Assembly: GCA_943789275.1 (NCBI GenBank)
Contig: CALSTM010000003.1
Span: 515,935 to 579,934, forward strand
Direction of reading: 5' to 3'
From: Candidatus Poseidoniaceae archaeon
Lineage (GTDB): Archaea; Thermoplasmatota; Poseidoniia; Poseidoniales; Poseidoniaceae
Length of the DNA: 64,000 bases
The position numbers were made by a program, and so were the translations under genes. Position 1 is the first letter of the stretch; each line of letters begins with the position of its first letter. Positions 43,950 through 64,000 of this stretch are shown piece by piece. A model generated the notes under the pieces. It ran no database searches. It was not told the origin of the DNA and saw only the letters and a program-made list of their open reading frames with translations.

Positions 43950-46481
43950 TTATTCTAATTTCGATGCAAAGGAGCGGGCATAGAGCAATGCACCGATTTC
44001 AGCATCCCCTTGATGAAGAACATTCAATCCCATTGCGGGCCATGAATCAACCGAGCGAGCGAGCCATCCTACCAGTGGATGCGTGCGTCCATAATGCACC
44101 GATTCATTGCGCTCGGAAGTGGCAAGCATGTCATAGACATCAAGCAGTGCTGGTTTTCCAGCATGGTCCTCAAGCAACAAAATATGCAACACATCATCGA
44201 GCATGATTCGCCGTGAAGGGTAGGAGGTTGACCATGCAGGTAGACCGCCGCGTTCACCGGTTGGACGCGTGAGCAGTGCAGGCCAAGGCAACACTGTCGA
44301 GGCTAACCATCGTCGCCCAGAAGTTGAAGACAACTGAATCTGTAACCATTCACTGGCCCACGCCCTCCACCAAGGAGATGGCAGTAGACTCATGACTTGA
44401 CGCAGGAACTCCGGTGTCATCGGTTCACCCAATTCCATGTGTTGGAGCAAAGTACCCCACACATAGAGTGTTGAATCTTGTGGATGGAGTTTTGCTGCAG
44501 CCTTGCATTTCATCAAACAGTTTTCGATATGGTCCGGCAAAGGGGTGCCAATCGGGAACAGTGATTCCAACACCCGTAAGGTTTGATGCGGGGCATCAAG
44601 CCAACGAATACACGATTGTTCAATCAATTCATGAAACTCTTCTGGCATTTGATTTGCTGCTAAGAGGAGGGAAGTTGCCATCCACGAGCCGAGTTCCTCG
44701 TTTTCCAGGAAGTGTTGATACTTGAGAATGGATTCAACATTGTTGGTAAACCGTTGTCGCGTTTTCTCGAGTGCTCGGAGCGTCCATTCAGGAGACGCTT
44801 TGGGCATGGCGCTGATGAGTGTCGCCGTTTCGCATTGTTCAATGGGTAACAAATCAGCCCAACCTGATGGTAAAACAGAACGCAAACGAATCCAACGTGA
44901 AGTTCGATGCTCCATCGGCGTAGCAATCCATGCTGCTAACGGCGTACTGCTCTCATTCAAATTGGCCCATTGTTCATCTCCCTGTGGATAAAAAGCAAGT
45001 GCTCGCCAAATTGACCGCTGCAGTTCAAGGTTCGATTCTGTTGCTGAAAACAAGTTCTGATCAAAGCCATCGTTTTGGTTCCAAGCAGCAAGCAACTCCT
45101 TGGCAGATAACGGTACACGCTCATGAATCGTTTGCGACGAACGTTCCACGGGTGCTTGCAAAAGTGAGAGAGGGATATTCGTGCCTCTTCGCATCTCAAT
45201 GACGGCTTTCGTCAAGGTCTTTTCACTTCGAATCACGGCGGTGGATGACCTCAATTTTTGATATTCACCTTCGGATGTAACCAGAATACGGCACCTTCCA
45301 GTGGCAAGAACTTGTTCGAGAATCTCTCTGTTCTCTTCGATTGCATACGGCCATTCAATCACACAATCTCTGCTTGATTCAAAAGCGAACCATTCAAGCA
45401 AGGCGTTTGCTCCTTTAGCGGAGACTCCTGAGAAATTCATGGTGCTCATGCTGATTGATTCACGCCATTCTGCTTTACCAAAATCCGTTAGTAACTGCCG
45501 CTGAACGGCCAGAGGGGGTGGCGATTCAGTAGCATTCAGTAAATGCCGACTTAATTCTTTGAACTTCATGATTCTTTTTTCATCGGCCATTCGTGGATGC
45601 CGTGACTGCAACCAGTATTGTATCGCATCAATAGGTAGATAGCGTCTTGAACGCTGTTGCGGACGAGCTTCAAACACTAAGGCTTCTGCACTCATTGCAT
45701 TGAGTGCTAATGAACGGTTGACAGCGACGGTAAGATGAGCATGGATACCTTTTTTTGGAGAGATTCGTAAGTCCGTACCTGTTGCAGTGCCGAGTGTATA
45801 CTCGCCTTGTGTGAGTAGAGACGGTAACTCCGCAGCCTTTTCCGGTTCTTTGAACCATGTCCCTGGGCTCAGCAACCATTCGCTCCTCGAATCGAGTAGT
45901 GTCGCTCGAATCAGTCCAATACGGTCGACTTCTTCGGTCCATTCGGTGAGTGTTCCTCTCGTGGATAGCGAACGAGGGGCTTCTGTCCTCTCAAAATTAG
46001 AGAGCGTGTACCACTGGATCTCTCCACTTCTTTGAACGGCCCAGCGCCCCCCTTGCTTTCCGCTGGAGAAAGAGGACATGCTCCTACGCTCGGTGATGCC
46101 TTGGTTCGGTAGGGAGAGCAGTCTTGAACGGGGGGGTTTCACATAACCAAGCAGGACGTGAGGGCCGTCGAGAGTCAGAACGATGCCCTCCGCTTGGGTT
46201 GGTCGTTGCGACACGAGTTTGCGAGCTCTGGCCAGAGCATCTTCGGTTAATCTGGCTCGCCCTGCTTCGTTGAGTCGATGTTGAGCACCACGTATACTCC
46301 CTTGCTCGTCGCGACTCACTTCTCCTCGCTCCCGCAACTGCCGAAGCGCCAGTGAAGCGTGAGGCATCCGTAAGTTGAGCGACTCGGCTATACTGGAAAC
46401 CGTGCCACTGCCGTCAATCAACCAATTCAGAACACGCCGTTGATGGCCGCTTCGAATCTGTTTTACTGACATCAAAGTCAC
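43950..46481 (-). CDS. large hypothetical protein (843 aa) with N-terminal winged-helix DNA-binding domain
   Basis: N-terminal wHTH (RRVLNWLIDGSGTVSSIAESLNLRMPHASLALRQLRERGEV). The remaining ~750 aa are helical/Trp-rich with no recognised domain. Its upstream region has multiple palindromes. Confidence 0.5.
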   Translation of the reverse strand: MTLMSVKQIRSGHQRRVLNWLIDGSGTVSSIAESLNLRMPHASLALRQLRERGEVSRDEQGSIRGAQHRLNEAGRARLTEDALARARKLVSQRPTQAEGIVLTLDGPHVLLGYVKPPRSRLLSLPNQGITERRSMSSFSSGKQGGRWAVQRSGEIQWYTLSNFERTEAPRSLSTRGTLTEWTEEVDRIGLIRATLLDSRSEWLLSPGTWFKEPEKAAELPSLLTQGEYTLGTATGTDLRISPKKGIHAHLTVAVNRSLALNAMSAEALVFEARPQQRSRRYLPIDAIQYWLQSRHPRMADEKRIMKFKELSRHLLNATESPPPLAVQRQLLTDFGKAEWRESISMSTMNFSGVSAKGANALLEWFAFESSRDCVIEWPYAIEENREILEQVLATGRCRILVTSEGEYQKLRSSTAVIRSEKTLTKAVIEMRRGTNIPLSLLQAPVERSSQTIHERVPLSAKELLAAWNQNDGFDQNLFSATESNLELQRSIWRALAFYPQGDEQWANLNESSTPLAAWIATPMEHRTSRWIRLRSVLPSGWADLLPIEQCETATLISAMPKASPEWTLRALEKTRQRFTNNVESILKYQHFLENEELGSWMATSLLLAANQMPEEFHELIEQSCIRWLDAPHQTLRVLESLFPIGTPLPDHIENCLMKCKAAAKLHPQDSTLYVWGTLLQHMELGEPMTPEFLRQVMSLLPSPWWRAWASEWLQIQLSSTSGRRWLASTVLPWPALLTRPTGERGGLPAWSTSYPSRRIMLDDVLHILLLEDHAGKPALLDVYDMLATSERNESVHYGRTHPLVGWLARSVDSWPAMGLNVLHQGDAEIGALLYARSFASKLE

Positions 46482-49796: not shown

Positions 49797-49978
49797 CGTT
49801 CACCTTGAGTTGGGCGAAACGCACTGAGGACTTCAAGACTACGGCAGGATTCTTACGAGTCATTTCCTCTTTTTTTGAGATTTATTGACTTGTGGGGGAA
49901 AAATGTTCATTCGAAAACATGATTCCCGCCTTTCATGACTGGTAAACAGTATTACCTAATGCCGATTAATGTAGGCCT

Positions 49979-52900
49979 ATGCCCAGCATACGCCATGCGA
50001 ATTTCAACCGAGCCGTCGTTTTATCGCTCTTGATGATGATGATGACCCAAGTTGGTTATCTTGAATCCATGAACCCGTGGACAAACGGCGAAGAAACGCT
50101 CGACTCGAACGAAGTGATTTCACATACGTCTGCTGCAACGTCCGTGATGTATGGGAACAATTCGTTGTGGGCTCCTGACGGTAGTCAAATATTCAATGCT
50201 GGCGATGAAATGATGGCCGTTACATCCGATGTTGTGTTTTATATAGGAGCCACTAATCAAAACCCTCAAGACTTTGAGAAATGTTTGGCTGCATACAACT
50301 CCTCCAACATGACGAGATGGATTCCAAACATTGCAGGTCGATCAAATACCTGCTCTAGTAGTGTAGTAGGCCAGTCGATTGCTGAATTCAACTTCATTAC
50401 TCAAGTCGATGGACTCACATTTTTTGTCATGAAGGCCTCCCCAGGCAGGCAACAGATTCATGCCTACAATCCTGCAAACGACACGGTGTATCTTCACGAC
50501 ACCTCCCGTACTGGAAAAACTATTCTTGATAGTGTTGCAATTGGCAGAACAATATACTCACTGCAAAACTACCCCTTTATGATGACAGCATACAACATTG
50601 ACAATGGTTCTTCATGGGATATCTCAACTTCATCCCAATATTTTGTTGGTTTAAACGCCGTAGGAGGCAAAATTCTAGCTTTCAACAACAATACACAACA
50701 ACCATCGGGTCCGAATAATTGCAGCTACACAGGTTCATGTTATGAGCCATGGATTTACGATCCAGCCAACAACACATGGTTCAGGCCAACAAGAGGAAAC
50801 GAAATCATCAACAGGCCCATTGCGACAAGTGATTCCAAAGCCCTTGTCACCAATGGACAGATGTTTTGGGCTGACACTAACTACACCTACGGAATGGGTG
50901 CGTGGGTGTTTGATTCATCCAACAACACATATTGGATGCTTGATGCAAATGCGTCAACAGGGATGTCAACTATCACAACTGGACGATCTTCAGCAATTCG
51001 TTCTGGAACATCAATTTTCTATCTTACCAGACCTGCGTATTCGGTTTCCGGGCAAACCTTGTATGGCCTCGATCTTTGGGGTTACAGCACTGTCAATTCG
51101 TCGAGTTGGCGTCTATCGAACATCACGGAATTGCACCAACCTGATGCTCAATATGGATGTTCACAACAGCTTGCCGGACTCGCCAATGGCGATTTTGTGA
51201 TGTCCTTCGGGCGGGGTACGGGTTGCAACACGGTAGAAGTCGTATTTTATTCTTTAACCAACGACACGGCATGGCAAGTTTCTGGACTCGACTCTCCAAG
51301 CGATACCTCAAAGGTTTATTCTTTTCAGGGAAATGATATGGGACTATTGGGGGTTTATGGGAACACTGTTTATCTGAAGGGTAAAACTGCATACCCTTCC
51401 TATGAGCATGGACTCATTGCTTATGACGCTACGAATGGTTCATCGTATTCAACAACGGTTACGGGAGGATTCATCTCTGGTATTACCAGTAACCAGCCCG
51501 TACTCGGAAACGGGGGTCAATTCGTTTTCACGATGGGAAGTTATACCTGTGACTGTAACCCTTCTTGGGCAGATAGCTCCAGATATTCGTTTGCAGTCTG
51601 GACACCAACCGCTATCACCGTTAGCGATGCATGGAATCTCACACCTGGTCAGCGTATCGATGGACCGATTACAGGAGGTTTGGGCGGCGCATCGGATTCG
51701 GGTGTAGGCGTTCAAAATCTAACTGCCAGTGCCGAAGGTGCAGAACTCATCATCGACGAGGCCATGACCAACATCACCTTCCAATACAATTCCAGTGCGG
51801 CAAGCGGCTCAGGCGGCGGCTCAGGCGGCATGACCAACGTCACCGGTGCAACCTGCAGCGTTTCACCTTCTCTTCCAACCGGCCTATCCATCGACAGCGG
51901 CACGTGCACCATCAGCGGTACACCTTCAGTTGCAACAACGAACACAACTTACACGGTCACGGCGGTCATGAGCGGTGTGACCTACCAGACAACGGTATGG
52001 CTCTCAAGCGCTTACCTCCCACTCACGCCAAGTGTCGAAGGTGCAGAACTCATCCTCGATGAGGCCATGACCAACATCACCTTCCAGTACAACGCCAGTG
52101 CAGCAAGCGGCTCAGGCAGCGGCTCGGGCAGCGGCGGCATGACCAACCTCACCAATGCAACAAGTTGTGTTGCTTCACCAAGCCTACCAACCGGCCTGTC
52201 CATCGACAGCAGCACGTGCACCATCAGCGGTACACCAACGGTTGCGACGACAAACACGACCTACACGGTCACCGCCAACATCAGCAACGTAACCTACCAG
52301 CCAACGGTATGGCTCTCAAGCGCTTACCTACCACTCACGCCAAGTGTCGAAGGTGCAGAACTCATCCTCGATGAGGCCATGACCAACATCACCTTCCAGT
52401 ACAACGCCAGTGCAGCAAGCGGCTCAGGCAGCGGCTCAAATCAATCAAGTTTCGTCAATAACATCGGACTGAGAACCACATCGGGTTCAGCCACTCAAAT
52501 GATCAATGGGACAGCCATCACACCGATTGAATTCTCTCTTGAATGGGACAATTTCTCCCTGCCGAGTAATCTGAGTTCCAATGAAAAGGTGACATTCCCG
52601 TTCGACCATTCGTTCAACGACACATCGTCCACGCCCATGGAAAACTCAACCGCTTCGAACCTCACCTACGACCGACACGGCCGAGAAATGCACGCCCTGG
52701 ATGATGAAATTGAATACGGTTGGAGTGCGACAAATCGCAGTGAATTGGCAATCAATTCAAACACCATTTCACTCTCTCTTTGGGTAAAGCCAACCAATGT
52801 TGGGACAGTGCAAAACATCATCGACAACCACCCACAATACGACCTTAGAATAGATGCAAACGGGGCGCTCAGCTTCAGAATACGTCAAACTGGCAACGGA

Positions 52901-55900
52901 GCGTGGAACGACCATTATTCGAGCATACAACTCGAGAATGATGTGTGGTATCACATTGGCGTATCCGCAACGTACAGCAGCGGTTACGTGGTGAATTTCT
53001 ACGTAAATGGGTCGTCTGATGTCACGCGAACATCATCAGGTACTCAATTTACATCAACGTCAGGGACTACTTTAGGCCTCAGCAGTGCCGATAGTTGGTA
53101 TGATGGCTTTGATGGTGTTCTTGATGACCTGTACATATACGACGGACTCCTCTCTGCATCGAATTTTGCCACACTGATGGATGTCGGTGAAATCACGTGG
53201 GATATTTCGCCCGCTCTTCCGAGTGAATTGTCGCTGGATACAATCACAGGGACAATCACTGGAACACCTCCTAGCTCCCAAGGCGCAGGCCAATACACGG
53301 TGTATGCCAACTCCTCCACGACTTCCTATTCGCGAACATTCAACCTGAGTTTGAATTCATTCATGCCCACCGTCACCGGTGCAACATGTACGGTTTCACC
53401 TTCCCTTCCAACCGGCCTGTCCATCGACAGCAGCACGTGCACCATCAGCGGTACACCAACGGTTGAGACGAGCAACACGACCTACACGGTCACCGCCAAC
53501 ATCAGCAACGTGACCTACCAGGGCAGCGTGTGGTTGTCCACCTCGACGTTCGGCACCATCACCTCAGCGGTGGAAGGTGCGGCGCTCAACTTGGGTGAAG
53601 CGATGACCCCGATCACGCTCAATTACACGGTGAACGTCAACGCTTCATCTGGTTCTTCAGGATCTTCCGGTTCCAGTGGAGGCTCGGGTTCAAGCGGCGG
53701 CTCTTCGAGTTCCTCGTCCTCTGTTTATGCAAACAACAAGCTGTCTGCTGGATCTTCCCACACCTGTGCCATCCTTGACAACGGCGACCTGAAGTGTTGG
53801 GGGCTGGGATGGCACGGACAGTTGGGCGATGGAGGAAGCGGGTTTAGCTACGACACCAACGCACCTTCATCCACCGCCATCAACCTCGGCAGTGGCCGAA
53901 CGGCCGTTGCTGTGTCTGCTGGAGGTTCCCACACCTGCGCCATCCTTGACAACGGCGACCTGAAGTGTTGGGGGTATGACGGCTACGGACAGTTGGGCGA
54001 TGGAGGAAGCAACACGAACACCAACGCACCTTCATCCACCGCCATCAACCTCGGCACGGGCCGCACGGCCGTTGCTGTGTCTGCTGGAGGTTCCCACATC
54101 TGCGCCATCCTTGACAACGGCGACCTGAAGTGTTGGGGGCGGGACAATTACGGACAGTTGGGCGACGGTGGAAGCAACACGGACACCAACGCACCTTCAT
54201 CCACCGCCATCAACCTCGGCACGGGCCGAACGGCCGTTGCGGTGGCTGCTGGATCTTACCATGAGTTTACCTGTGCCATCCTTGACAACGGCGACCTGAA
54301 GTGTTGGGGGCGGGACACTTCGGGACAGTTGGGCGATGGAGCAGGCACCAATAACCTCAACGCACCTTCTTCCACGCCGATTGACCTTGGCAGTGGCCGA
54401 ACGGCCGTTGCGGTGTCTGCTGGAAGTGCCCACGCCTGCGCCATCCTTGACAACGGTGACCTGAAGTGTTGGGGGTCTAACTCCTTTGGGTCGTTGGGCG
54501 ATGGAGGAAGCCACGCGTACACCAACGCACCTTCATCCACCGCCATCAACCTCGGCACGGGCCGAACGGCCGTTGCTGTGTCTGCTGGAAATGGCTTCAC
54601 CTGCGCCATCCTTGACAACGGTGAGGCGAAGTGTTGGGGGTATGACTACAGTGGACAGTTGGGCGATGGAGGAAGCAACACGAACACCAACGCACCTTCA
54701 TCCACCGCCATCAACCTCGGCACGGGCCGAACGGCCGTTGCGGTGGCTGGTGGAAATGGCCACAACTGCGCCATCCTTGACAACGGTGAGGCGAAGTGTT
54801 GGGGGTATAACTCCCAAGGAGAGTTGGGCGACGGTGGAAGCAACACCAATCAGGGTTCACCGGTAGCTGTTTCTGGCAGCAACACCTGGGATGCCACGAC
54901 CACCATCGCCACTTGGGAAACACACCCTGCTTTACCAGCGGGCATGAGCATCTCAGGCGGTACGATCAGCGGCACACCTTCGGTCTATGCGACCAATCAA
55001 ACCTACACGATTTACGCCAATAAGAGCGGTTATTCAACCACGCACGAGTTGTACTTTAGCGTGGATACAGACAATGCGCATACCGTCGTTGAAAATCAGA
55101 CGATTGATCCAATTGGCTTCCATCCTCCGTTCTGGAACGGTACGACCGCTTGGACGGTCTCACCTGCCTTGCCGGGCAACCTCTCCATCAACGGAAGCAC
55201 CGGTGAAATCACCGGAACGGTCAACGGAACGCTGACCAACACCACCTACACGGTGACAGCGACGCACAGTGGCTCAGGCGCTGCAACGGAAACCTTCTCG
55301 TTCAACTTGCAGAGTCTTGCTGATTACGATGGCGACGGTCTTGCCAACGACTTGCCAAGCGATTACGATGCAGCTGAAGGGCCAACCTCTGGTCTTGTTG
55401 CTGACGATGATGACGACGGCGACGGCCTTGCCGACAGCATCGAAACGAATACTGGAACCTACATTGACGCCAGCGATACGGGCACCGACCCATTGAATCC
55501 AGACACCGACGGTGATGGTATCTGCGACGGACCAAATGCAGTACCTCCAATCTGTGTTGCAGGTCCAGACATGGACCCGAACGGTGAGAGTTTCCCACCA
55601 ACCTTGGTGGCCATCAACAACACCGCCATCTCAACGCTTGCTCCATACTTGGCAGTAAGCGGTGGAACGTACGAAATTGCACCCGACTTGCCAGCAACCC
55701 TGTCACTTGACCCCGCAACCGGTGAAATCACCGGTACACCGACCGAAACCATCACCAACACGACCTTCACCATGTGGTCGAACAACTCCAACGGTGATTC
55801 TCTCTCGTGGAACTTCACCATTGAAATCTTGGAAGACAGCGACGGCGACGGAATGCCAAACGAACTTCCGGGCGATTATGATCCAACCAACCCTGATGCA

Positions 55901-56881
55901 CCTGGCCTTGTGGAAGACACTGACGATGATAACGACGGACTTTCCGACACCAACGAATCAGAGATTGGCACCAATCCACTCAACCCAGATACAGACGGCG
56001 ACGGTATGTGCGACGGACCTGTGGCTTCGCCACCAGACTGCGTTGCTGGCCCTGACGCCTTCCCGCTTGACCCTGCTGGCGACACCGATACAGACGGCGA
56101 CGGCAACCCAGACACGCTTAACCCTCCTTCAAACAGCGACCCTGCTTTGGTTGAGGACTTGGACGACGACGGTGACGGCTTGGACGACGTGAACGAAACG
56201 GGCACGGGCATCTACAACAGCAGCACTGACACGGGAACCGACCCGCTTGACCCAGACACCGATAACGACGGTATTTGCGACGGACCGAACGCTGTCTATG
56301 ACGTTCAAGGCAACCTCATCTGCGTTGCTGGACCTGACGATACACCGTTTGGCGAAGCTGCGGAAGGGGTTGTGTATGGCTTGAACAACACACAGTTCTC
56401 AAGTCTCGTACCGCCTTACCAATTGCCTGGTGCAACATGGAGTATTTCTCCAGACTTGCCTGATGGACTGAGCATTGACCCAGTCAGCGGAATCATCAGC
56501 GGAACACCGACTGAAGTGATGGACAACATCACCTTCACCATTTTCGGCATCGCTCTGATACCTCATCCATCACCTTTGATTTCAACTTGCAAATTTTGGA
56601 AGACACTGACCGCGACGGTCTGCCCAACGACCTGCCCGACGATTATCCGGTTGACGGAGAACTCATCGAAGACTTGGACGACGACGGTGATGGTGCTTCT
56701 GACCTCTCAGAAACCGGTACTGGAATCTACAACGGAACGGATGACATGGGTACAGACCCGCTTGATCCTGATACGGATGATGACGGAATCTGTGACGGTC
56801 CAAACGATGTTCTGCCGCAATGTATCGGTGGTCCTGACTCCAATCCGTTTGGTACTGGACCGCTCGGGCCTACAGTTTTAG
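49979..56881 (+). CDS. giant cell-surface adhesin-like protein, N-terminal 2300-aa segment (frame A) of a gene apparently broken by frameshifts
   Basis: Signal peptide (VVLSLLMMMMTQVGYL), an NxS/T-rich Kelch-like region, three ~103-aa near-identical CADG/He_PIG-type Ig-like repeats (SPSLPTGLSIDSSTCTISGTPTVATTNTTYTVTA), a LamG/ConA-like lectin domain (SLWVKPTNVGTVQNIID...), a Ser/Gly linker, seven RCC1-like repeats (CAILDNGDLKCWG..GQLGDGG), more He_PIG domains and TSP type-3-like Ca-binding repeats (DTDGDGICDGPN, DDDDDGDGLAD). Confidence 0.8.
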   Translation: MPSIRHANFNRAVVLSLLMMMMTQVGYLESMNPWTNGEETLDSNEVISHTSAATSVMYGNNSLWAPDGSQIFNAGDEMMAVTSDVVFYIGATNQNPQDFEKCLAAYNSSNMTRWIPNIAGRSNTCSSSVVGQSIAEFNFITQVDGLTFFVMKASPGRQQIHAYNPANDTVYLHDTSRTGKTILDSVAIGRTIYSLQNYPFMMTAYNIDNGSSWDISTSSQYFVGLNAVGGKILAFNNNTQQPSGPNNCSYTGSCYEPWIYDPANNTWFRPTRGNEIINRPIATSDSKALVTNGQMFWADTNYTYGMGAWVFDSSNNTYWMLDANASTGMSTITTGRSSAIRSGTSIFYLTRPAYSVSGQTLYGLDLWGYSTVNSSSWRLSNITELHQPDAQYGCSQQLAGLANGDFVMSFGRGTGCNTVEVVFYSLTNDTAWQVSGLDSPSDTSKVYSFQGNDMGLLGVYGNTVYLKGKTAYPSYEHGLIAYDATNGSSYSTTVTGGFISGITSNQPVLGNGGQFVFTMGSYTCDCNPSWADSSRYSFAVWTPTAITVSDAWNLTPGQRIDGPITGGLGGASDSGVGVQNLTASAEGAELIIDEAMTNITFQYNSSAASGSGGGSGGMTNVTGATCSVSPSLPTGLSIDSGTCTISGTPSVATTNTTYTVTAVMSGVTYQTTVWLSSAYLPLTPSVEGAELILDEAMTNITFQYNASAASGSGSGSGSGGMTNLTNATSCVASPSLPTGLSIDSSTCTISGTPTVATTNTTYTVTANISNVTYQPTVWLSSAYLPLTPSVEGAELILDEAMTNITFQYNASAASGSGSGSNQSSFVNNIGLRTTSGSATQMINGTAITPIEFSLEWDNFSLPSNLSSNEKVTFPFDHSFNDTSSTPMENSTASNLTYDRHGREMHALDDEIEYGWSATNRSELAINSNTISLSLWVKPTNVGTVQNIIDNHPQYDLRIDANGALSFRIRQTGNGAWNDHYSSIQLENDVWYHIGVSATYSSGYVVNFYVNGSSDVTRTSSGTQFTSTSGTTLGLSSADSWYDGFDGVLDDLYIYDGLLSASNFATLMDVGEITWDISPALPSELSLDTITGTITGTPPSSQGAGQYTVYANSSTTSYSRTFNLSLNSFMPTVTGATCTVSPSLPTGLSIDSSTCTISGTPTVETSNTTYTVTANISNVTYQGSVWLSTSTFGTITSAVEGAALNLGEAMTPITLNYTVNVNASSGSSGSSGSSGGSGSSGGSSSSSSSVYANNKLSAGSSHTCAILDNGDLKCWGLGWHGQLGDGGSGFSYDTNAPSSTAINLGSGRTAVAVSAGGSHTCAILDNGDLKCWGYDGYGQLGDGGSNTNTNAPSSTAINLGTGRTAVAVSAGGSHICAILDNGDLKCWGRDNYGQLGDGGSNTDTNAPSSTAINLGTGRTAVAVAAGSYHEFTCAILDNGDLKCWGRDTSGQLGDGAGTNNLNAPSSTPIDLGSGRTAVAVSAGSAHACAILDNGDLKCWGSNSFGSLGDGGSHAYTNAPSSTAINLGTGRTAVAVSAGNGFTCAILDNGEAKCWGYDYSGQLGDGGSNTNTNAPSSTAINLGTGRTAVAVAGGNGHNCAILDNGEAKCWGYNSQGELGDGGSNTNQGSPVAVSGSNTWDATTTIATWETHPALPAGMSISGGTISGTPSVYATNQTYTIYANKSGYSTTHELYFSVDTDNAHTVVENQTIDPIGFHPPFWNGTTAWTVSPALPGNLSINGSTGEITGTVNGTLTNTTYTVTATHSGSGAATETFSFNLQSLADYDGDGLANDLPSDYDAAEGPTSGLVADDDDDGDGLADSIETNTGTYIDASDTGTDPLNPDTDGDGICDGPNAVPPICVAGPDMDPNGESFPPTLVAINNTAISTLAPYLAVSGGTYEIAPDLPATLSLDPATGEITGTPTETITNTTFTMWSNNSNGDSLSWNFTIEILEDSDGDGMPNELPGDYDPTNPDAPGLVEDTDDDNDGLSDTNESEIGTNPLNPDTDGDGMCDGPVASPPDCVAGPDAFPLDPAGDTDTDGDGNPDTLNPPSNSDPALVEDLDDDGDGLDDVNETGTGIYNSSTDTGTDPLDPDTDNDGICDGPNAVYDVQGNLICVAGPDDTPFGEAAEGVVYGLNNTQFSSLVPPYQLPGATWSISPDLPDGLSIDPVSGIISGTPTEVMDNITFTIFGIALIPHPSPLISTCKFWKTLTATVCPTTCPTIIRLTENSSKTWTTTVMVLLTSQKPVLESTTERMTWVQTRLILIRMMTESVTVQTMFCRNVSVVLTPIRLVLDRSGLQF
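51725..52440 (+). repeat. about 2.4 copies of a 303-312-bp near-identical tandem repeat encoding CADG/He_PIG-like domains
   Basis: AGTGTCGAAGGTGCAGAACTCATCCTCGATGAGGCCATGACCAACATCACCTTCCAGTACAACGCCAGTGCAGCAAGCGGCTCAGGC recurs at 52031 and 52343. Antisense ORFs 51712-51945 and 52012-52257 are near-identical. Confidence 0.8.
53741..54870 (+). repeat. seven tandem RCC1-like repeats (156-159 bp each) with high nucleotide identity
   Basis: Recurring GCCATCCTTGACAACGGCGACCTGAAGTGTTGGGGG...GGACAGTTGGGCGATGGAGGAAGCAAC. Seven blades fit an RCC1-type beta-propeller. Confidence 0.8.
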
Positions 56882-59157
56882 TCAACAATTCGATGACTGC
56901 ACCAATTCCTCCAGCAAACCCAGTACCAGGTGCAGTTTGGGAAGTCTCTCCTGACTTGCCGGATGGCCTCGTGCTCGACCCAGCAACGGGAATCATTACC
57001 GGAACGCCAACACAATCAATGGACAACACGACGTTCACCATGTGGGCCAACACAACCACGCCAAGCATGTCGATTATCTCGACGTTCTGGCTTGAAGTGC
57101 TTGAGGACAGCGACGGTGATGGAATGCCAGACGCACTTCCAGACGATTATCCTGACATGAATCCACCTTACGATTTGGTCGAAGATTTGGACGACGATAA
57201 CGACGGTATGTCGGATGACGATGAAGCAATCATTGGAACCGACCCTACCAATCCTGATTCAGACGGCGACGGATTCTGTGATGGTAACGGAACGGGCGAT
57301 GGCGACTGCTATGCAGGACCTGACTCCTCACCGCTTGACCCAGCACTGCCAGCCAATACTGATGGTGATGCGTATCCTGATGACGACCCAGACGGTGAAG
57401 GCGGCTTAGTTGCTGATACCGATGACGACAACGATGGTTTCCTTGATACCCGTGAATTGGAGTGTCTATCTGACTCTCTCGATGCGACAGACGTGCCTGA
57501 AGACCTTGATGGTGACGGGGAATGTGATGCATTAGACGACGATATTGACGGTGACGGATTGATCAACGATCTTGAATCCAATACTGGTGTTTACAATCCA
57601 CCTTTCGAAACAGGAACAGACCCTCGTAATGCTGACACCGATGGTGACGGCGTTTGCGATGGCGACGAATCTCCACCGAACAACAATTGCACTGCAGGAC
57701 ACGATGCGTTCCCGCTTGACCCTGCAGCTCACGCAGACACTGACGGTGACGGGTTCCCTGACGAACTGTTCGGAAATTCAACCAGCACTCCTCCACTCAC
57801 GCTCGATATGGACGATGACAACGATGGATGGACCGACGTTGATGAAACGGCGTGCGGCACAGACAGTTTGGATGACGCAAGTACACCCGTTGATACCGAT
57901 GTAGACGGCATTTGTGATGCACTGGATGACCTGTTGGATCTACCGTTTACGATGACATACCCAACCCAAAATCTAACCATTGGAGTTGGCGAAGAAATGA
58001 TCCCTTTCCTGCCGAATATTACCGGTTTAGGAGAGGTTGCAACGTGGGAAATCAGTGGAGAATTGCCCGATGGCCTCACCTTTGGTTGGAGTCCTGCTCG
58101 AGATGCCTTGTTGGATGGAAGTATTCGCGGAACACCACTGAATGCCTCGGAAATGAGCAACCTCACCATCTGGGCGAACAATTCTGCTTACAGTCAATCG
58201 TTCGAAGTGTCTCTCACCGTCAACGATGTTGTTTCAGATGACAGTGATGGTGATGCTGAATCCAGTCTCAAGTGGGGTTACATCTGTTGTCCTTTACTGC
58301 TGTTGATTTTGCTTGCAGTGTTCTTAATCTTCATGCCAAATGAAAAGACCGTTTTGAAAGATGCAGAGCCTGAACATACGGTTGTGAAACCAAGAACAAA
58401 GAAAGGCAGTGGAACAGAAGATGATCCGTTTGTGTTGAAATCGATTAAGGGTGTAAAACCTGGAAGTCTTGTTTACAGCAAAGAAATCATCACAATCGAT
58501 GAGATTTCCCCGAACCTTTTGATTAAGTGTGAAGACCGTAACAGTTCTTCGAAGTTCCAAAGCATGAAATTGTCAAATGAACTGCTTGAAACAGACAGTG
58601 AAGAGGATGAACCAGCACTGATTTCTACAGCAATTAATGCGACTGAACACGGTGTCATTCGTTTCAAGTTGGTCTACGATGACAGCGAATTGCCAACATT
58701 TGCAGGCCAGACCGTCAAGGCCTTGGTTAAGGTTGGTAACAATTCTGTCTACTTCCTTTGGGAAATTGAAATCAAGAAAGATTCAGATTGGCAGAAAAAG
58801 ATGGCTGCGAGTGATGCAGAATCCGACGATGAATCTGGAAACGCTGTCGTCGAGTACGTCACTGAAAAAGCGACGGTTGCCAAAGAGAAAACGCACTCCG
58901 TTCTTGATATGGATGGCGACGGTAAACTCACCGTTGAAGACGTTAAGCGCGGTGCTACTCAAATGGCAGAAAACGCCAAGAAGGGCGTTGAAATCGTCAA
59001 AGAGAAGGTTGTTGCTGCTAAGGTTGCGACCGACGCCAAGCTTGCCGAAAGAAAAGCTGCTAAGGAAACCAAGGCTGCCAAGCAAGCCAAGGCCCAAGCC
59101 GATGCAGATGCCAAGGAAGCCAAAGCTGCAGAACAGAAGGCTGCGCAAGGAGGCTGA
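56587..59157 (+). CDS. same giant adhesin gene, middle segment (frame B): TSP3-like Ca-binding repeats, He_PIG domains, TM helix, cytoplasmic region with EF-hand-like loop
   Basis: Continues the domain series of the upstream segment after a frame change at ~56545-56590 (FTIFGIA | SDTSSITFDFNLQILEDTDRDGLPNDLPDDYP parallels earlier FTMWSNNSNGDSLSWNFTIEILEDSDGDGMPNELPGDYDP). TM helix WGYICCPLLLLILLAVFLIFM (~58270-58335). EF-hand-like LDMDGDGKLTVEDV. KA-rich helix begins. Confidence 0.7.
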   Translation: MQILEDTDRDGLPNDLPDDYPVDGELIEDLDDDGDGASDLSETGTGIYNGTDDMGTDPLDPDTDDDGICDGPNDVLPQCIGGPDSNPFGTGPLGPTVLVNNSMTAPIPPANPVPGAVWEVSPDLPDGLVLDPATGIITGTPTQSMDNTTFTMWANTTTPSMSIISTFWLEVLEDSDGDGMPDALPDDYPDMNPPYDLVEDLDDDNDGMSDDDEAIIGTDPTNPDSDGDGFCDGNGTGDGDCYAGPDSSPLDPALPANTDGDAYPDDDPDGEGGLVADTDDDNDGFLDTRELECLSDSLDATDVPEDLDGDGECDALDDDIDGDGLINDLESNTGVYNPPFETGTDPRNADTDGDGVCDGDESPPNNNCTAGHDAFPLDPAAHADTDGDGFPDELFGNSTSTPPLTLDMDDDNDGWTDVDETACGTDSLDDASTPVDTDVDGICDALDDLLDLPFTMTYPTQNLTIGVGEEMIPFLPNITGLGEVATWEISGELPDGLTFGWSPARDALLDGSIRGTPLNASEMSNLTIWANNSAYSQSFEVSLTVNDVVSDDSDGDAESSLKWGYICCPLLLLILLAVFLIFMPNEKTVLKDAEPEHTVVKPRTKKGSGTEDDPFVLKSIKGVKPGSLVYSKEIITIDEISPNLLIKCEDRNSSSKFQSMKLSNELLETDSEEDEPALISTAINATEHGVIRFKLVYDDSELPTFAGQTVKALVKVGNNSVYFLWEIEIKKDSDWQKKMAASDAESDDESGNAVVEYVTEKATVAKEKTHSVLDMDGDGKLTVEDVKRGATQMAENAKKGVEIVKEKVVAAKVATDAKLAERKAAKETKAAKQAKAQADADAKEAKAAEQKAAQGG

Positions 59158-60152
59158 AGCAAGCCAAGGCTGCTGAAGAGAAGGCTGCTAAGGAAGCCAA
59201 AGCACAAGCTGATGCTGACGCAAAGGCTGCCAAGCAAGCCAAGGCTGCTGAAGAGAAGGCTGAGAAGGAAGCTGAGAAGCAAGCCAAGGCCCAAGCCGAT
59301 GCAGATGCCAAGCAAGCCAAGGCTGCTGAAGAGAAGGCTGAGAAGGAAGCTGAGAAGCAAGCCAAGGCCCAAGCCGATGCAGATGCCAAGGAAGCCAAAG
59401 CACAAGCTGATGCTGACGCAAAGGCTGCTAAGGAAGCCAAGGCTGCTGAAGAGAAGGCGGCTAAGGAAGCCAAGGCTGCTGAAGAGAAGGCTGAGAAGGA
59501 AGCTGCTGCCAAGAAGAAGGCTGAGAAGAAACCAGCATCGAAGGAAGTCAAGAAAAAGGAAGAACTCAAGCGGGTTCAAGAACGCTCGGAAACGATTGAC
59601 TTTTCGATTCTTGGAACAGCCAAGGCAAGCGACAAAGACGACCTTCAAGTCATGAAGGGTATTGGCCCATTCATTGAAGAAAAGCTCAATGCGCTCGGAA
59701 TCTACACTTACCTACAAGTCTCGAAGATGACCTCAAAACTTGAAACAGACGTCAACGAGGCCATCGAGTTCTTCCCTGGCCGTGTCAAGCGAGACCAATG
59801 GGTCAACCAGGCGAAGATTTTGCTCGGTGAGGACGTGAAACTCGATGAGAAGGCACTCAAGCAAGCCGAAGACCTCGAACGAATCTCCAAGAAGGCTGAG
59901 TCAATTGACTTCGCTACGCTTGGTGTTGCAAGCGCTTCCGAGAAGGACTCGCTGCAGACAATCAAAGGGATTGGTCCGTTTATTGAAGAGAAGTTGAATG
60001 CGCTTGGTATTTACACCTTCGAACAAGTTGGAAACATGACGCCTGATATTGAAGAACAGGTCAACAAGGCCATCGAGTTCTTCCCAGGCCGTGTCAAGCG
60101 AGACCAATGGGCGAAGCAGTCAAGGGCTCTTCACGAACAAACTACTAAGTGA
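59157..60152 (+). CDS. same giant adhesin gene, C-terminal segment (frame C): KA-rich repeat linker plus two HhH (DUF4332-like) repeats
   Basis: The KA-rich frame (KQAKAAEEKAEKEAEKQAKAQADADAK...) runs without stops from ~59157 into the track ORF 59652-60152. That ORF has two repeats of [I/M]KGIGPFIEEKLNALGIYT[Y/F].QV..MT......V..AIEFFPGRVKRDQW..Q (HhH/DUF4332-like). The junction is a 1-nt deletion (GCTGAAGCAAGCC versus paralogous GCTGAGAAGCAAGCC). Confidence 0.5.
   Translation, partial: KQAKAAEEKAAKEAKAQADADAKAAKQAKAAEEKAEKEAEKQAKAQADADAKQAKAAEEKAEKEAEKQAKAQADADAKEAKAQADADAKAAKEAKAAEEKAAKEAKAAEEKAEKEAAAKKKAEKKPASKEVKKKEELKRVQERSETIDFSILGTAKASDKDDLQVMKGIGPFIEEKLNALGIYTYLQVSKMTSKLETDVNEAIEFFPGRVKRDQWVNQAKILLGEDVKLDEKALKQAEDLERISKKAESIDFATLGVASASEKDSLQTIKGIGPFIEEKLNALGIYTFEQVGNMTPDIEEQVNKAIEFFPGRVKRDQWAKQSRALHEQTTK
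59233..59388 (+). repeat. perfect 78-bp tandem duplication (26 aa: AKQAKAAEEKAEKEAEKQAKAQADAD) within a longer degenerate KA-rich repeat tract (~59000-59560)
   Basis: 59233-59310 is identical to 59311-59388 (AGCAAGCCAAGGCTGCTGAAGAGAAGGCTGAGAAGGAAGCTGAGAAGCAAGCCAAGGCCCAAGCCGATGCAGATGCCA). Confidence 0.9.
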
Positions 60153-60207
60153 TTAAACCCGTTATGAAAGGCTTCAAAACCTTTATGCAATAAGGGGTCG
60201 AAGAATC

Positions 60208-63200
60208 ATGCACGGTGCGGATGCTTTGCTCCCTCTAACATTAAAAGCGAACAAGACTGCCTCGAATGGCTCGAACTCGCTAAAATCGGTGATTTTGTCG
60301 CTCTTGATGATTTCAATGTCCCTCTCAGCGGGAATTGTTCAATCAAGTCCTTCCCACGAGACTCTGGAAAAGTCTTCGAGCGAACTGAGCTTGTCGACAA
60401 TTTCTGACTCCGTCTCATCAGGCCTTGCTGAACTGAGCAGCTTGTTGGGGTTGGTTGAAGATCAGCCAGCCGAACTTGAACAATCCAATGCTGATGCGAT
60501 GTTGACTGGGGGTCGCTCCGTTCCTTCAGTATCGTATTCTCCCAGTACGTTCAACCTCGTTCGTAACACAGCAATGAGCGACCAAACGCCCACCTCATCT
60601 GGGGGCACGGTAACTTCTTGGTCTATTTCGCCGACTCTTCCTTCAGGTATTTCGATTTCATCATCGACGGGTACAATCTCCGGAACGCCGACTGTAATCA
60701 GCGCATCGACCTCCTACACTGTGACAGCAACCAACGGTGCCGGCAGCGATACTGCAACCATCACCATCTCCGTTACCGATGCTTTGCCGGTTATCGTTTA
60801 CTCTCCGAACACATTCACCGAGGCTGTGGGCACTGCAATGACGTCGGTCACACCGACATCGTACGCAGGTACGGTCGATTCTTACTCGATTTCTCCGTCG
60901 CTACCTCCGGGTTTGTCCTTGGATACCAGCACGGGTACCGTTAGCGGAACGCCAACTGCCGTCTCTTCATCAACATCCTACACCGTAACGGCGACCAACT
61001 CCGCAGGTACAGACACCGCCTCCCTCACTATTGTCGTCAATGACGTTGCACCAACTTCGATCAGTTACTCTCCGAACACATTCACGTTAACGAAGGGGAC
61101 ATTGATTTCTACGGTCACGCCGACCTCAAGTGGAGGGGCTGTCACATCATGGACCATTTCACCGTCTCTTCCAGCAGGACTTTCTTTGGCCTCTTCCGAT
61201 GGTGCAATCAGCGGAACACCGACTGAAGTGTCATCGTTACAAACTTACACCGTGACAGGTACGAACACTGGCGGGAGTGCTACTGCAGAGATCACGATTC
61301 AAGTCAATGATGTTGCTCCAATCATCGGTTACCCTACGACTTCTTACACCCTGGTCAAGGGTAGTGCCATGTCGAGCCCTGCAACACCTACCTCAACCGG
61401 TGGTACAGTTGTTACTTGGGATGTATCCCCTACCCTTCCATCAGGCCTCACTATTTCCAGTTCCACTGGTGTTATTTCAGGAACACCCACAACCGTTACT
61501 TCTTCTGCAGTCTACACCGTTACTGCGACCAACACCGGAGGCACAGATACAGCAACTGTGACCATTCAAGTCAATGATGTACAGCCGCTTATCGGTTATT
61601 CTCCGAGCTCTATTTTGTTGTCAAAGGGTACGACGATGTCGCCTGCCAGTCCAACGTTGTACGGCCAAGGACAAGTAGACTCATGGTCCGTCTCACCTTC
61701 TCTCCCCGCTGGAATAAGTCTTGACTCATCAACTGGTATCATCACCGGGATGCCTACCACTATCAGTCCCTCCGCTACGTACACCATCACTGCAACGAAC
61801 ACCGGTGGTACCGATACTGCAACCCTCACCATTACCGTCAATGATGCTACACCTTCAATTGCATTCTCTACGAATTCATTTACCCTGACCAAAGGCACTG
61901 CGATGACAACTACTACTCCATCATCAACCGGAGGAGCAGTTGTCACATGGTCTATCTCTCCATCGCTCTCGGCGGGGCTCTCTTTTGATTCTTCGACAGG
62001 AACACTTTCTGGAACACCAACCGTGGTTTCAGCCTCTACAGTCTACACGATTACTGCAACCAACACTGGCGGCAGTGATTCGGCTACCGTAACCATCGTT
62101 GTCAACGATATTGCTCCATCCGCTATAGCTTACAGCCCAAGTTCCTTCACCCTGACCAAGGATTCGGCTATGACTGCTGCCACACCTACCTCGAGCGGAG
62201 GTACAGTCGTCTCTTGGGCTGTTAGTCCATCGCTCCCAGCAGGTCTCTTATTGGATACCTCAACAGGTGAGATTTCTGGAACACCTACAGCCGTGACCTC
62301 TTCTGCCACCTACACCGTTACTGCAACCAACACCGGTGGCGATGCTACAACCACCGTGACCATCGTTGTCAACGACGTGATTCCATCTTCAGTTTCGTAC
62401 AGCGACAGTCCGTTTACTTTGACGAAAGATTCCCTCATGACGGCTTCTACGCCAACATACAGCGGAGGGACAGTCATCTCTTGGGCTGTTTCTCCATCGC
62501 TCCCAGCAGGTCTTGCCTTCTCTACCTCGACCGGTGAAATTTCAGGTACTCCATCGGCCGTCACTTCTTCGGCAACCTATACCATTACGGCAACCAACAC
62601 CGGTGGTGACGCTACGACCACCGTGACCATCGTTGTCAACGACATTATTCCATCTTCAGTTTCGTACAGTGGCAGTCCGTTTACCTTGACGAAAGATTCC
62701 TTGATGACGGCATCTACACCAACTTACAGCGGCGGAACAGTCATCTCTTGGGCAGTTAATCCTTCGCTCCCAGCAGGTCTTGTTCTCGATACTTCTACCG
62801 GAGAAATTTCCGGAACGCCTACAGCCGTGACCTCTTCTGCAACCTACACCATTACAGCCTCCAACACCGGTGGCAGCGCTACGACCACCGTGACCATCGT
62901 TGTCAACGACATCATCCCATCATCGGTTACTTACAGCCCGAATTCATTCACCCTGACCAAAGACAGCAGCATGACTGCTACTACACCAACCGCAAGTGGC
63001 GGTCCAGTCGTATCTTGGGCTGTTTCTCCATCGCTACCTGCTGGCATAGTCATCGATTCATCCACCGGTGAGATCAGCGGAACCCCAACAGCTGTGACCT
63101 CTTCGGCAACCTACACCATTACAGCCACCAACACCGGTGGTAGCGCTACGACCACTGTTACCATCGTTGTCAACGACATTATTCCATCATCGGTTGCCTA

Positions 63201-64000
63201 CAGCCCGAATTCATTCACCCTGACTAAAGACAGCAGCATGACTGCAACTACGCCTACTTCGAGCGGCGGTCCAGTCGTTACTTGGACAGTCTCTCCAACG
63301 CTACCTGCTGGCATAGTCATCGATTCATCCACCGGTGAGATTTCTGGAACCCCTACAGCCGTCACTTCTTCGGCAACCTACACCATTACGGCCACCAACA
63401 CCGGTGGTGACGCTACGACTACTGTTACCATCGTTGTCAACGACATCATCCCATCATCAGTTTCGTACAGTGACAGTCCGTTTACCTTGACGAAGGGTAC
63501 AACCATGACGGCCTCAACCCCGACCTCGAGTGGCGGTACCGTCATTTCCTGGGCTGTTTCTCCATCGCTCCCAGCAGGTCTTGCCTTCTCTACCTCGACC
63601 GGTGAAATTTCAGGTACTCCATCGGCCGTCACTTCTTCGGCAACCTATACCATTACGGCAACCAACACCGGTGGTGACGCTACGACAACCGTGACCATCG
63701 TTGTTAACGACGTGATTCCGTCTTCAGTCTCTTACAGCGGAAGTCCGTTCACATTGACCAAAGACTCGGCTATGACCGCAGCCACACCTACTTCCAGCGG
63801 CGGTACCGTTGTATCGTGGGCAGTCTCTCCTTCACTCCCTTCGGGCTTGGTTATCGATTCATCAACCGGTGTGATCAGCGGAACACCTACAGCAATCACT
63901 GCTTCAGCAACCTATACCATTACAGCCACCAACACCGGTGGAGACGCTACGACAACCGTGACCATCGTTGTCAACGACATTATTCCATCTTCAGTTTCGT
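60208..64000 (+). CDS. second giant surface protein, 3'-truncated by the window edge: signal peptide plus more than 13 tandem CADG/He_PIG (dystroglycan-type cadherin-like) domains
   Basis: Not in the ORF track because it runs off the window. The frame is open from the ATG at 60208 (after an in-frame TAA at 60154) to 64000. N-terminus SVILSLLMISMSLSAGIV (signal/anchor). Repeats of ...SYSPNSFTLTKDSxMTAxTPTSSGGxVxSWAVSPSLPAGLxxDSSTGEISGTPTAVTSSATYTITATNTGGDATTTVTIVVNDIIP. Confidence 0.8.
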   Translation, partial: MHGADALLPLTLKANKTASNGSNSLKSVILSLLMISMSLSAGIVQSSPSHETLEKSSSELSLSTISDSVSSGLAELSSLLGLVEDQPAELEQSNADAMLTGGRSVPSVSYSPSTFNLVRNTAMSDQTPTSSGGTVTSWSISPTLPSGISISSSTGTISGTPTVISASTSYTVTATNGAGSDTATITISVTDALPVIVYSPNTFTEAVGTAMTSVTPTSYAGTVDSYSISPSLPPGLSLDTSTGTVSGTPTAVSSSTSYTVTATNSAGTDTASLTIVVNDVAPTSISYSPNTFTLTKGTLISTVTPTSSGGAVTSWTISPSLPAGLSLASSDGAISGTPTEVSSLQTYTVTGTNTGGSATAEITIQVNDVAPIIGYPTTSYTLVKGSAMSSPATPTSTGGTVVTWDVSPTLPSGLTISSSTGVISGTPTTVTSSAVYTVTATNTGGTDTATVTIQVNDVQPLIGYSPSSILLSKGTTMSPASPTLYGQGQVDSWSVSPSLPAGISLDSSTGIITGMPTTISPSATYTITATNTGGTDTATLTITVNDATPSIAFSTNSFTLTKGTAMTTTTPSSTGGAVVTWSISPSLSAGLSFDSSTGTLSGTPTVVSASTVYTITATNTGGSDSATVTIVVNDIAPSAIAYSPSSFTLTKDSAMTAATPTSSGGTVVSWAVSPSLPAGLLLDTSTGEISGTPTAVTSSATYTVTATNTGGDATTTVTIVVNDVIPSSVSYSDSPFTLTKDSLMTASTPTYSGGTVISWAVSPSLPAGLAFSTSTGEISGTPSAVTSSATYTITATNTGGDATTTVTIVVNDIIPSSVSYSGSPFTLTKDSLMTASTPTYSGGTVISWAVNPSLPAGLVLDTSTGEISGTPTAVTSSATYTITASNTGGSATTTVTIVVNDIIPSSVTYSPNSFTLTKDSSMTATTPTASGGPVVSWAVSPSLPAGIVIDSSTGEISGTPTAVTSSATYTITATNTGGSATTTVTIVVNDIIPSSVAYSPNSFTLTKDSSMTATTPTSSGGPVVTWTVSPTLPAGIVIDSSTGEISGTPTAVTSSATYTITATNTGGDATTTVTIVVNDIIPSSVSYSDSPFTLTKGTTMTASTPTSSGGTVISWAVSPSLPAGLAFSTSTGEISGTPSAVTSSATYTITATNTGGDATTTVTIVVNDVIPSSVSYSGSPFTLTKDSAMTAATPTSSGGTVVSWAVSPSLPSGLVIDSSTGVISGTPTAITASATYTITATNTGGDATTTVTIVVNDIIPSSVS
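60520..64000 (+). repeat. 267-bp (89-aa) tandem repeat array with a higher-order ~1068-bp periodicity; the last ~8 copies are near-identical
   Basis: Antisense ORFs 62310-62564 and 63378-63632 differ by 3 aa and lie 1068 bp (4 x 267) apart. The protein shows repeated 89-aa units ending in VTIVVND. Confidence 0.85.

Follow-up and report, generated by a model that had tools for sequence, protein, structure and literature searches.

Open reading frames at the locus

The window analysed here is a stretch of 64,000 nucleotides (nt) from contig CALSTM010000003.1 of GenBank assembly GCA_943789275.1 (positions 515,935 to 579,934), and the element under study is a gene on its plus strand, at 49979-60152, where a giant surface protein is encoded in pieces by three consecutive open reading frames (ORFs). 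The host is a Candidatus Poseidoniaceae archaeon of Marine Group IIa (MGIIa), and homologues of the protein were labelled Candidatus Poseidoniales, Poseidoniaceae or Thermoplasmatota. An earlier note on this DNA had described three plus-strand ORFs carrying one domain series, with a step of -1 at each junction, and had read them as one gene rather than three; frames, translations and orthologues bore out both statements. Judged by its sequence, 49979-60152 is one gene, and the split appears to be an annotation trap rather than new biology, the frame breaks being most likely artefacts.

Measured from stop to stop, the plus strand was open in frame 2 from 49970 to 56881 (ATG at 49979), in frame 1 from 56515 to 59157 and in frame 0 from 59064 to 60152, with a net step of -1 both at junction 1, between the first and second ORFs, and at junction 2, between the second and third. 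When segments A, B and C (Table 1) were joined, a protein of about 3,386 amino acids (aa), or ~3,390, was obtained. Past the breaks, ORFs of 862 and 333 codons remain open and homologous, which excludes chance openness.

That the ORFs are three separate genes, with their own starts and functions, is very improbable. A gene caller does emit separate ORFs, and a 166-aa C-terminal ORF from ATG 59652 was called in several assemblies; against this, the domain series, including even one immunoglobulin-like (Ig-like) domain that junction 1 cuts before its last strands, spans the breaks, and the orthologues are fused into single ORFs, so that one gene is to be preferred. Frame 1 has no start codon near junction 1, the first being a TTG at 56587, within the Ig-like domain, and segment B carries no signal peptide, though it consists mostly of extracellular-type sequence. 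In frame 0 the first start codon is the ATG at 59652, with none in 59064-59652.

Predicted product

The product is predicted to be a type-I membrane-anchored giant surface glycoprotein of ~3,390 aa, with a signal peptide, an extracellular region of ~2,750 aa, one transmembrane helix and a cytoplasmic part made of a domain, a coiled coil and two helix-hairpin-helix (HHH) domains. The extracellular region would comprise, in order, an N-terminal domain, He_PIG, Laminin_G_3, an RCC1 propeller and thrombospondin-type-3 (TSP3) repeats alternating with Ig domains, and would be acidic and rich in sequons. Coordinates of these features are given in Table 1.

Pfam matches in segment A included eight He_PIG stretches, seven RCC1_2 stretches and TSP3_bac, with further He_PIG in segment B, and the scores were above the curated thresholds (167.9 bits for He_PIG, 202 for RCC1_2, 205 for WD40_RLD and 72 for Laminin_G_3); TSP3_bac in segment B scored 27.6 bits against a cut-off of 25. 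The RCC1 region is a tandem repeat of period 165 (53742-54846). The C-terminal Pfam match was Cdd1/HHH. Most of the domains guessed earlier from the letters (He_PIG, RCC1, TSP3_bac, Laminin_G_3 and HHH, the last as Cdd1/PF11731) were recovered, the exception being the EF-hand, as the EF-hand-like loop behind the transmembrane helix gave a sub-threshold match.

The export signal and the membrane anchor are predicted from the N-terminal hydrophobic segment and one C-terminal helix. Kyte-Doolittle values exceeded 2.0 solely at aa 2764-2771 and, the N-terminus aside, no other strongly hydrophobic window was present in the protein. Upstream of the transmembrane helix lie 75 of the 79 N-X-S/T sequons, and the composition of the extracellular part is 13.2% D+E versus 2.1% K+R. 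A role in adhesion or surface interaction, and with it the label 'adhesin', is suggested by the domain content.

The tandem cytoplasmic HHH tail (PF11731 Cdd1/COG3743-like) that follows a K/A/E coiled coil is common to many giant surface proteins of the Poseidoniales (homologues P0001-P0120), whose extracellular parts differ among members. The C-terminal piece of homologues and the HHH-tailed proteins carry the Joint Genome Institute (JGI) name 'predicted flap endonuclease-1-like 5' DNA nuclease', a label that almost certainly misleads, the tail belonging to a membrane protein.

Table 1. Features of the split gene, with positions in the window.
Feature	Coordinates	Strand	Remarks
N-terminal hydrophobic signal/anchor-like segment MPSIRHANFNRAVVLSLLMMMMTQVGYLES	49979-50068	+	Read from translation
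Segment A	49979-56554	+	Frame 2; genuine coding part of first ORF, 2,192 codons from ATG to junction 1
Laminin_G_3 (concanavalin-like lectin)	52745-53161	+	Pfam PF13385, E = 6.9e-20; overlaps first dimorphic patch (~52680-53000)
Seven-blade RCC1-like beta-propeller	53879-54880	+	Pfam WD40_RLD E = 2.8e-60, RCC1_2 E = 3e-61
Dimorphic patch with junction 1	56340-56590	+	Polymorphism bins of 10 assemblies
Segment B	56554-59153	+	Frame 1; TSP3 repeats and He_PIG alternating, transmembrane helix, cytoplasmic domain without assigned fold, start of coiled coil
Frame-2 remainder	56555-56881	+	Read-through out of frame
Single transmembrane helix WGYICCPLLLLILLAVFLIFM	58273-58335	+	aa 2766-2788; Kyte-Doolittle scan
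K/A/E-rich coiled-coil tandem array	59080-59547	+	Periods 15, 33, 78 and 198 nt; includes junction 2
Segment C	59154-60152	+	Frame 0; remaining coiled coil and two HHH domains; stop codon 60150-60152
Two tandem HHH (Cdd1/PF11731-like) domains	59643-59825, 59952-60131	+	In segment C

Orthologous loci

The comparison with orthologous loci that the earlier note had proposed was carried out on metagenome contigs and GTDB species genomes, with a 335-aa query across junction 1, and gave 35 loci. Junction 1 was covered by a single-frame tblastn match in 30 of them, and several of these contigs were in frame through junction 2 as well. The closest relative (L037, 96.7% nucleotide identity) kept the same frame for 12 codons beyond junction 1, up to the end of its contig. 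The single-cell genomes of the AG- and AH- series among the hits (L020, L022) are from other species. Complete single ORFs of ~2,600-3,600 codons were present in L009, L012, L013, L008, L038 and L031, and in a close short-read relative (P0009/L058) the cytoplasmic domain, the coiled coil and the C-terminus follow one another in one ORF. These in-frame orthologues indicate that the fused, single-ORF state is the norm.

Only one locus was broken near junction 1 (L001, on a contig named '..._pilon' from another species), and that copy had many further disruptions. It was tried as a shared break (P0012/L001) and rejected, given its '_pilon' contig, its several other disruptions and a deletion unlike that of the window. 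Junction 1 was also considered as a conserved gene boundary, many C-terminal homologues being of ~1,200 aa; most of these (P0001, P0002, P0003) start at contig ends, and the candidate was discarded. An apparent frame change in the coiled coil of L029 proved to be a scaffold gap of N bases.

Multiple breaks were seen in contigs with long-read-style names, namely L001 ('_pilon'; 9740-9760), L018 (the metagenome-assembled genome, MAG, FRAM_WSC20) and L028 (contig_18115_C_MB351, at least four frame changes). Short-read-style contigs were nearly all uninterrupted, the exceptions being L016, with one frameshift, and L029, with the run of N.

Assemblies of the same population

More than 220 collection blocks contain AdoHcyase and DeoC with sequences identical to those of the window. 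For the giant gene, twelve distinct assemblies from different ENA samples, at least 99% identical, were compared (L045, L046 and L048-L057; L044, L040, L041 and L042 are second views of L054, L048, L049 and L057, respectively). Over the upstream flank of 11,109 nt, 1-4 mismatches and 0 gaps were found in each of ten assemblies (L048-L057), and four assemblies matched positions 59601-64000 at 100% identity and without a gap. Within the gene, each assembly showed 14-61 mismatches and 10-30 gap openings with respect to the window. The gap-free flanks in the ten assemblies and the full-length Pfam matches of other genes ruled out the idea that indel errors are frequent throughout the window.

The gene was cut differently in each of the twelve assemblies. 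The called ORF sets (in aa) were, for example, 3057+165, 3065+166, 3161+166, 2157+939+165, 2127+857+244, 956+1195+1039+166, 956+842+388+865+165 and 199+69+124+339+1202+876+225. The frameshifted 2,300-aa product of the first ORF of the window was looked up by exact sequence, and none was on record.

Ten assemblies were aligned, and polymorphic columns and frame-changing gap runs were counted per 300-nt bin. Bin 52679 held 14 polymorphic columns and 15 frame-changing gap runs, bin 56279 held 56 and 38 (neighbouring bins about 0), bin 58979 held 50 and 32, and bin 59279 held 33 and 65. Nearly all frame-changing runs fell in such high-polymorphism bins, at 52.68-53.0, 56.28-56.6 and 58.98-59.58 kb. 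Two outlying bins, 55079 and 56579, had nine runs each, arising from one private single-base insertion (L053 and L045, respectively), and the ~3 kb stretches separating the patches were otherwise devoid of frame-changing runs. Population diversity is packed in three short dimorphic patches (52680-53000, 56340-56590 and 59080-59560); identity across samples is 99.96-100% over the other ~9 kb of the gene and over flanks totalling more than 15 kb. The breaks are essentially limited to these patches and are not reproducible from one assembly to another.

At site 52816, in the first patch, two in-frame alleles (X and Y) were distinguished, GTGCAAAAC-ATCATCGAC and GTACA-AACGATCATCAAT, which are distinguished by a -1 and a +1 that compensate each other. 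One half only of this pair is present in several assemblies, which are frameshifted, and X/Y hybrids are present. A column-majority consensus of the ten assemblies, built to recover an intact ORF, did not give one; it was itself frameshifted and met its first stop at codon 1065, beyond the 52816 patch. This may be seen as a small demonstration of the error mechanism proposed below.

Some assemblies of the same population had the N-terminal domain of ~560 aa swapped for an unrelated cassette, only ~23% identical and with its own internal repeats (window 50105-51803 compared with L046 1-1094 and with L049/L057, oriented copies, 340-1840), and retained the signal peptide and everything from ~aa 605. 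The exchange has the appearance of genuine domain swapping between strains at the protein's tip. A short-read-style contig of 228 kb from the same population (L043, ERZ27251137 k141_1363332) ends ~1.3 kb into the giant gene, which is consistent with assemblers breaking at a strain-heterogeneous locus.

Sequence at the junctions

At junction 1, frame 2 reads ...TEVMDNITFTIFGIA (over a longer stretch ...ISGTPTEVMDNITFTIFGIA, then nonsense) and frame 1 resumes with SDTSSITFDFNLQILEDTDRDGLPNDLP... In P0001, an orthologue without interruption, the same place reads ...ENITFIIYGNASATNTITFGFNLEILEDTDLDGLPNTLP, in agreement with the stitched translation. The frame change could lie anywhere within 56515-56557, and its best placement is GGCATCGC^TCTGATACC at 56553/56554. 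The site is inside the He_PIG Ig-like domain (nt 56372-56574), and the Pfam match there passes from profile positions 10-77 uncorrected to 11-86 when the frame is corrected. No tandem repeat is present at this site, and the longest homopolymer, T4, is invariant in length.

Two alleles were recognised here. Allele 1 is ...ACCTACACCATTTTGGGCATCA---CCGATACCTCATCC, that is, GGCATCA---CCGATACC (L046, L048, L049, L051 and L054), and has the length of most orthologues. Allele 2 is ...ACCTTCATCATTTACGGCAACGCTTCTGCTACC..., that is, GGCAACGCTTCTGCTACC (L045); it is present too in L018 and L003, of other species, a likeness that suggests imported recombination tracts. The window has ...ACCTTCACCATTTTCGGCATCGC-TCTGATACCTCATCC, with the exact string GGCATCGCTCTGATACC, and flips between the states of the two alleles at least six times within 50 nt. 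Of the three bases that make allele 2 the longer one, it keeps two, being -1 with respect to allele GCTTCTG and +2 with respect to allele A---CCG. Other mixes were found in L050 (GGCATCGC--CTG) and L052 (GGCATCGCTTCTGATACC), and in L054 a span of 82 nt upstream contains three separate +1 insertions, so that 27 codons are out of frame before the frame is restored. Such interleaved patterns would require implausibly many recombination events. They would be the product expected if neighbouring consensus 'bubbles' were resolved independently in a roughly balanced mixture of alleles.

At junction 2, frame 1 closes with ...KEAKAAEQKAAQGG* (coiled-coil repeat ...KEAKAAEQKAA) and frame 0 carries on as KQAKAAEEKAAKEAKAQ... 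/ KQAKAAEEKAAKEAKAQADAD... The interval of the possible frame change is 59064-59157, with an aberrant string, GCGCAAGGAGGCTGAAGC, at ~59143-59160. All compared assemblies agree up to ~59130 and then diverge within the tandem array. The in-frame sequence GCTGCGAAGGAAGCTGAGAAGCAAGCC, encoding AAKEAEKQA, was common to L045, L046, L049 and L052. The window alone has GCTGCGCAAGGAGGCTGAAGCAAGCC, which, over 20 nt, departs from the in-frame sequences of the same population by an added C (+1), one A>G change and the loss of GA (-2), net -1; the remaining assemblies showed private deletions or insertions of 1, 4, 9, 25, 31, 33 or 35 nt. The units of the array (15, 33, 78 and 198 nt) are all multiples of 3 nt.

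The two breaks had earlier been taken for clean single-nucleotide frame changes, with one G missing at junction 2. The strings compared for the latter, GCTGAGAAGCAAGCC and GCTGAAGCAAGCC, measure 15 nt versus 13 nt, so that two bases are missing, and neither junction is a clean one-base event.

Recoding, phase variation and decay

A programmed slip of -1 by the ribosome or the RNA polymerase at each junction would turn the three ORFs into one protein, and the facts that both steps are -1 and that the downstream frames are open and conserved speak for it. The X XXY YYZ slippery heptamer was absent from 56515-56881 (frame 2) and from 59064-59157 (frame 1), no homopolymer longer than T4 occurred in either overlap zone, and Rfam at gathering thresholds gave nothing in the window, including any frameshift element. 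Furthermore, the 30 orthologues keep one frame across junction 1, in-frame sequence was found within the population for each of the two sites, and the position and sign of the break vary between assemblies. Programmed frameshifting, which the earlier note had held unlikely for want of a heptamer, was rejected on the missing heptamer, the non-conserved site and the lack of an Rfam element, and hardly any weight can be given to it.

A variable-length homopolymer or short-unit tract that could be the source of a frame change was found at neither junction. The same disabling mutation was not recovered in independent samples: the junction 2 string is private to the window, and that of junction 1 is shared, locally, with L053 only.

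The ratio of nonsynonymous to synonymous substitution (dN/dS) was 0.11 for segment B versus L003 (824 codons) and 0.09 for segment C versus L004 and L007, compared with 0.13 over the 96 codons that close segment A; a very recent lesion would leave no trace in such values. No extra stops were present past the breaks. Purifying selection appears to act on the parts behind the breaks as it does on the part before them.

Origin of the frame breaks

The explanation favoured here, with a probability of roughly 0.8, is that the gene is intact and that both breaks are consensus artefacts, of collapsed strain alleles at junction 1 and of an array variable in copy number at junction 2. During assembly, reads of co-existing strain alleles would have been collapsed into one sequence. 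At junction 1 the two in-frame alleles differ by several substitutions and small indels, and at junction 2 by the number of repeat copies within the tandem array; a consensus built column by column or bubble by bubble would then interleave them into a hybrid in which an indel is left uncompensated. The error probably arose at the consensus step, and it is most likely that no cell carries either frame break. Between the two options of the earlier note, indel errors and a recent pseudogene or phase variation, the former is favoured because the breaks differ per assembly, nearly all fall where two alleles coexist and, in the window, consist of strings that are hybrid (junction 1) or private (junction 2). 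The cause seems to be narrower than the repeat-rich sequence to which such errors had been ascribed, namely a mixing of alleles while the consensus was built; junction 2 is located in a tandem array, but junction 1 is in no tandem repeat.

The alternative that the frameshifts are real, some strains carrying broken copies that are recent pseudogenes or else on/off variants under selection from viruses or grazers, is unlikely. The window would then represent one such strain, making a truncated, anchor-less, secreted fragment of 2,192 aa. At least one break is present in all twelve assemblies of the same population and the same three zones recur, in the only polymorphic locus across ~25 kb; the swapping of the N-terminal ~560-aa cassette between strains also points to diversifying selection at the locus. 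Nevertheless, the full pattern of breaks is unique to each assembly, and the junction strings of the window are unreproduced save for that of junction 1, locally, in L053. Real frameshifts would also have to account for the nucleotide-scale interleaving of two in-frame alleles, with its many recombinations within 50 nt, and for the three insertions within 82 nt in L054, whose like, restoring the frame in some assemblies, is biologically implausible. A mutable tract is lacking at junction 1 (T4 only), the array of junction 2 is built of units that preserve the frame, and the downstream segments have no extra stops and are nearly invariant in the population.

Quite improbable, too, is that the breaks are real standing variation, a near-clonal MGIIa population comprising many sub-strains, each with small indels of its own in the same three dimorphic patches. 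If true, the indels would switch the protein between full-length anchored and truncated anchor-less forms, an archaeal analogue of phase or antigenic variation by allele recombination and not by simple-repeat slippage.

Several observations weigh against an assembly artefact. None of the twelve assemblies of the same population (0/12) had a fully clean ORF, and the intact state was rebuilt from pieces and from other species. L053 has the local string of the window at junction 1, GGCATCGC-TCTGATACC, with different single-nucleotide polymorphisms 3-6 nt away, and counts for real frameshifts, as does L001, which has independently lost 1 nt (relative to the intact L021) no farther than 5 nt from junction 1. 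The short-read-style L016 changes frame at the start of the coiled-coil region. Genuine strain-level frameshift polymorphism would likewise concentrate in a hypervariable gene. The artefact was deduced from the comparison of assemblies and was not observed in reads, and the assemblies are taken as long-read, Flye-type, solely from contig names (contig_N, scaffold_N, _pilon), literature searches having given no project or platform for the ERZ10646xxx assemblies.

On the reading of collapsed alleles, a gene caller produces here three or more 'hypothetical proteins' in place of one surface protein of ~3,390 aa. The failure mode is that assemblies with essentially error-free flanks still frameshift exactly where strain alleles coexist; thus, pseudogene or 'split gene' calls of MAGs in hypervariable surface-protein loci are untrustworthy without read-level phasing. 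The underlying giant, strain-variable surface glycoprotein of Marine Group II is real and of a known kind.

Neighbouring genes

The rest of the window appears to contain ordinary, intact archaeal housekeeping genes, for example those of ThrRS, CDC48, AdoHcy hydrolase, aldehyde dehydrogenase and phytoene synthase, the checked genes being full-length in Pfam. Four large ORFs (619-1,059 aa) had no Pfam match at E <= 0.001 (9082-11634, 11631-13490 on the minus strand, 16624-19803, and 43950-46481 on the minus strand).

A second, larger surface-protein gene begins 56 nt after the first (60208-64000) and runs off the end of the window with more than 1,260 codons open. Its visible part has 13 He_PIG stretches, matches to DUF11 and I-set, internal repeats of 80-85% identity and a strongly negative GC skew of the coding strand (-0.16 to -0.23). 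Elsewhere it was called as more than 6,833 aa (L045, 10557-20501) and split as 1488+5289 in L044; the counterpart in L001 has 5,917 aa and also a Cdd1/HHH match.

Comparison with known systems

Programmed -1 ribosomal frameshifting is exemplified in archaea by fucA1 of Saccharolobus solfataricus, in which, as in the window, adjacent ORFs one -1 step apart jointly encode one protein. In contrast to fucA1, the window has no slippery heptamer, the site is not conserved and in-frame versions are present in the same population. Halomucin of Haloquadratum walsbyi is reportedly an example of the giant strain-variable surface proteins encoded in flexible genomic islands of abundant planktonic prokaryotes. 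The protein described here is similarly a very large, acidic, repeat-built extracellular protein at the most variable locus of a near-clonal population; the likeness is by description only, and domain composition and the cytoplasmic HHH tail differ.

Gene fragmentation driven by indels in long-read genome and metagenome assemblies is addressed by proovframe (bioRxiv 10.1101/2021.08.23.457338) and Kastor (PMC12007338). The present case is like such artefacts in that one gene appears as adjacent ORFs in shifted frames and intact relatives restore one ORF. It differs from the usual random or homopolymer errors in that flanks of more than 15 kb in total are indel-free across 4 to 10 assemblies, the errors here occurring almost only at coexisting strain alleles or at variable tandem-repeat copy number.

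Secreted glycoproteins with TSP3 repeats are widespread in Ca. Poseidoniales and have been proposed to serve in cell adhesion (Rinke et al. 2019, PMC6461757). The protein of the window shares with them the lineage, the calcium-binding TSP3 repeats, a sequon-rich extracellular region and widespread orthologues. Unlike them, it is far larger and adds He_PIG, Laminin_G_3, the RCC1 propeller, a transmembrane anchor, a coiled coil and two HHH domains. The split itself is probably not a real feature, and the gene adds one more example to the giant TSP3/Ig-domain surface glycoproteins of the Poseidoniales, a kind already known.

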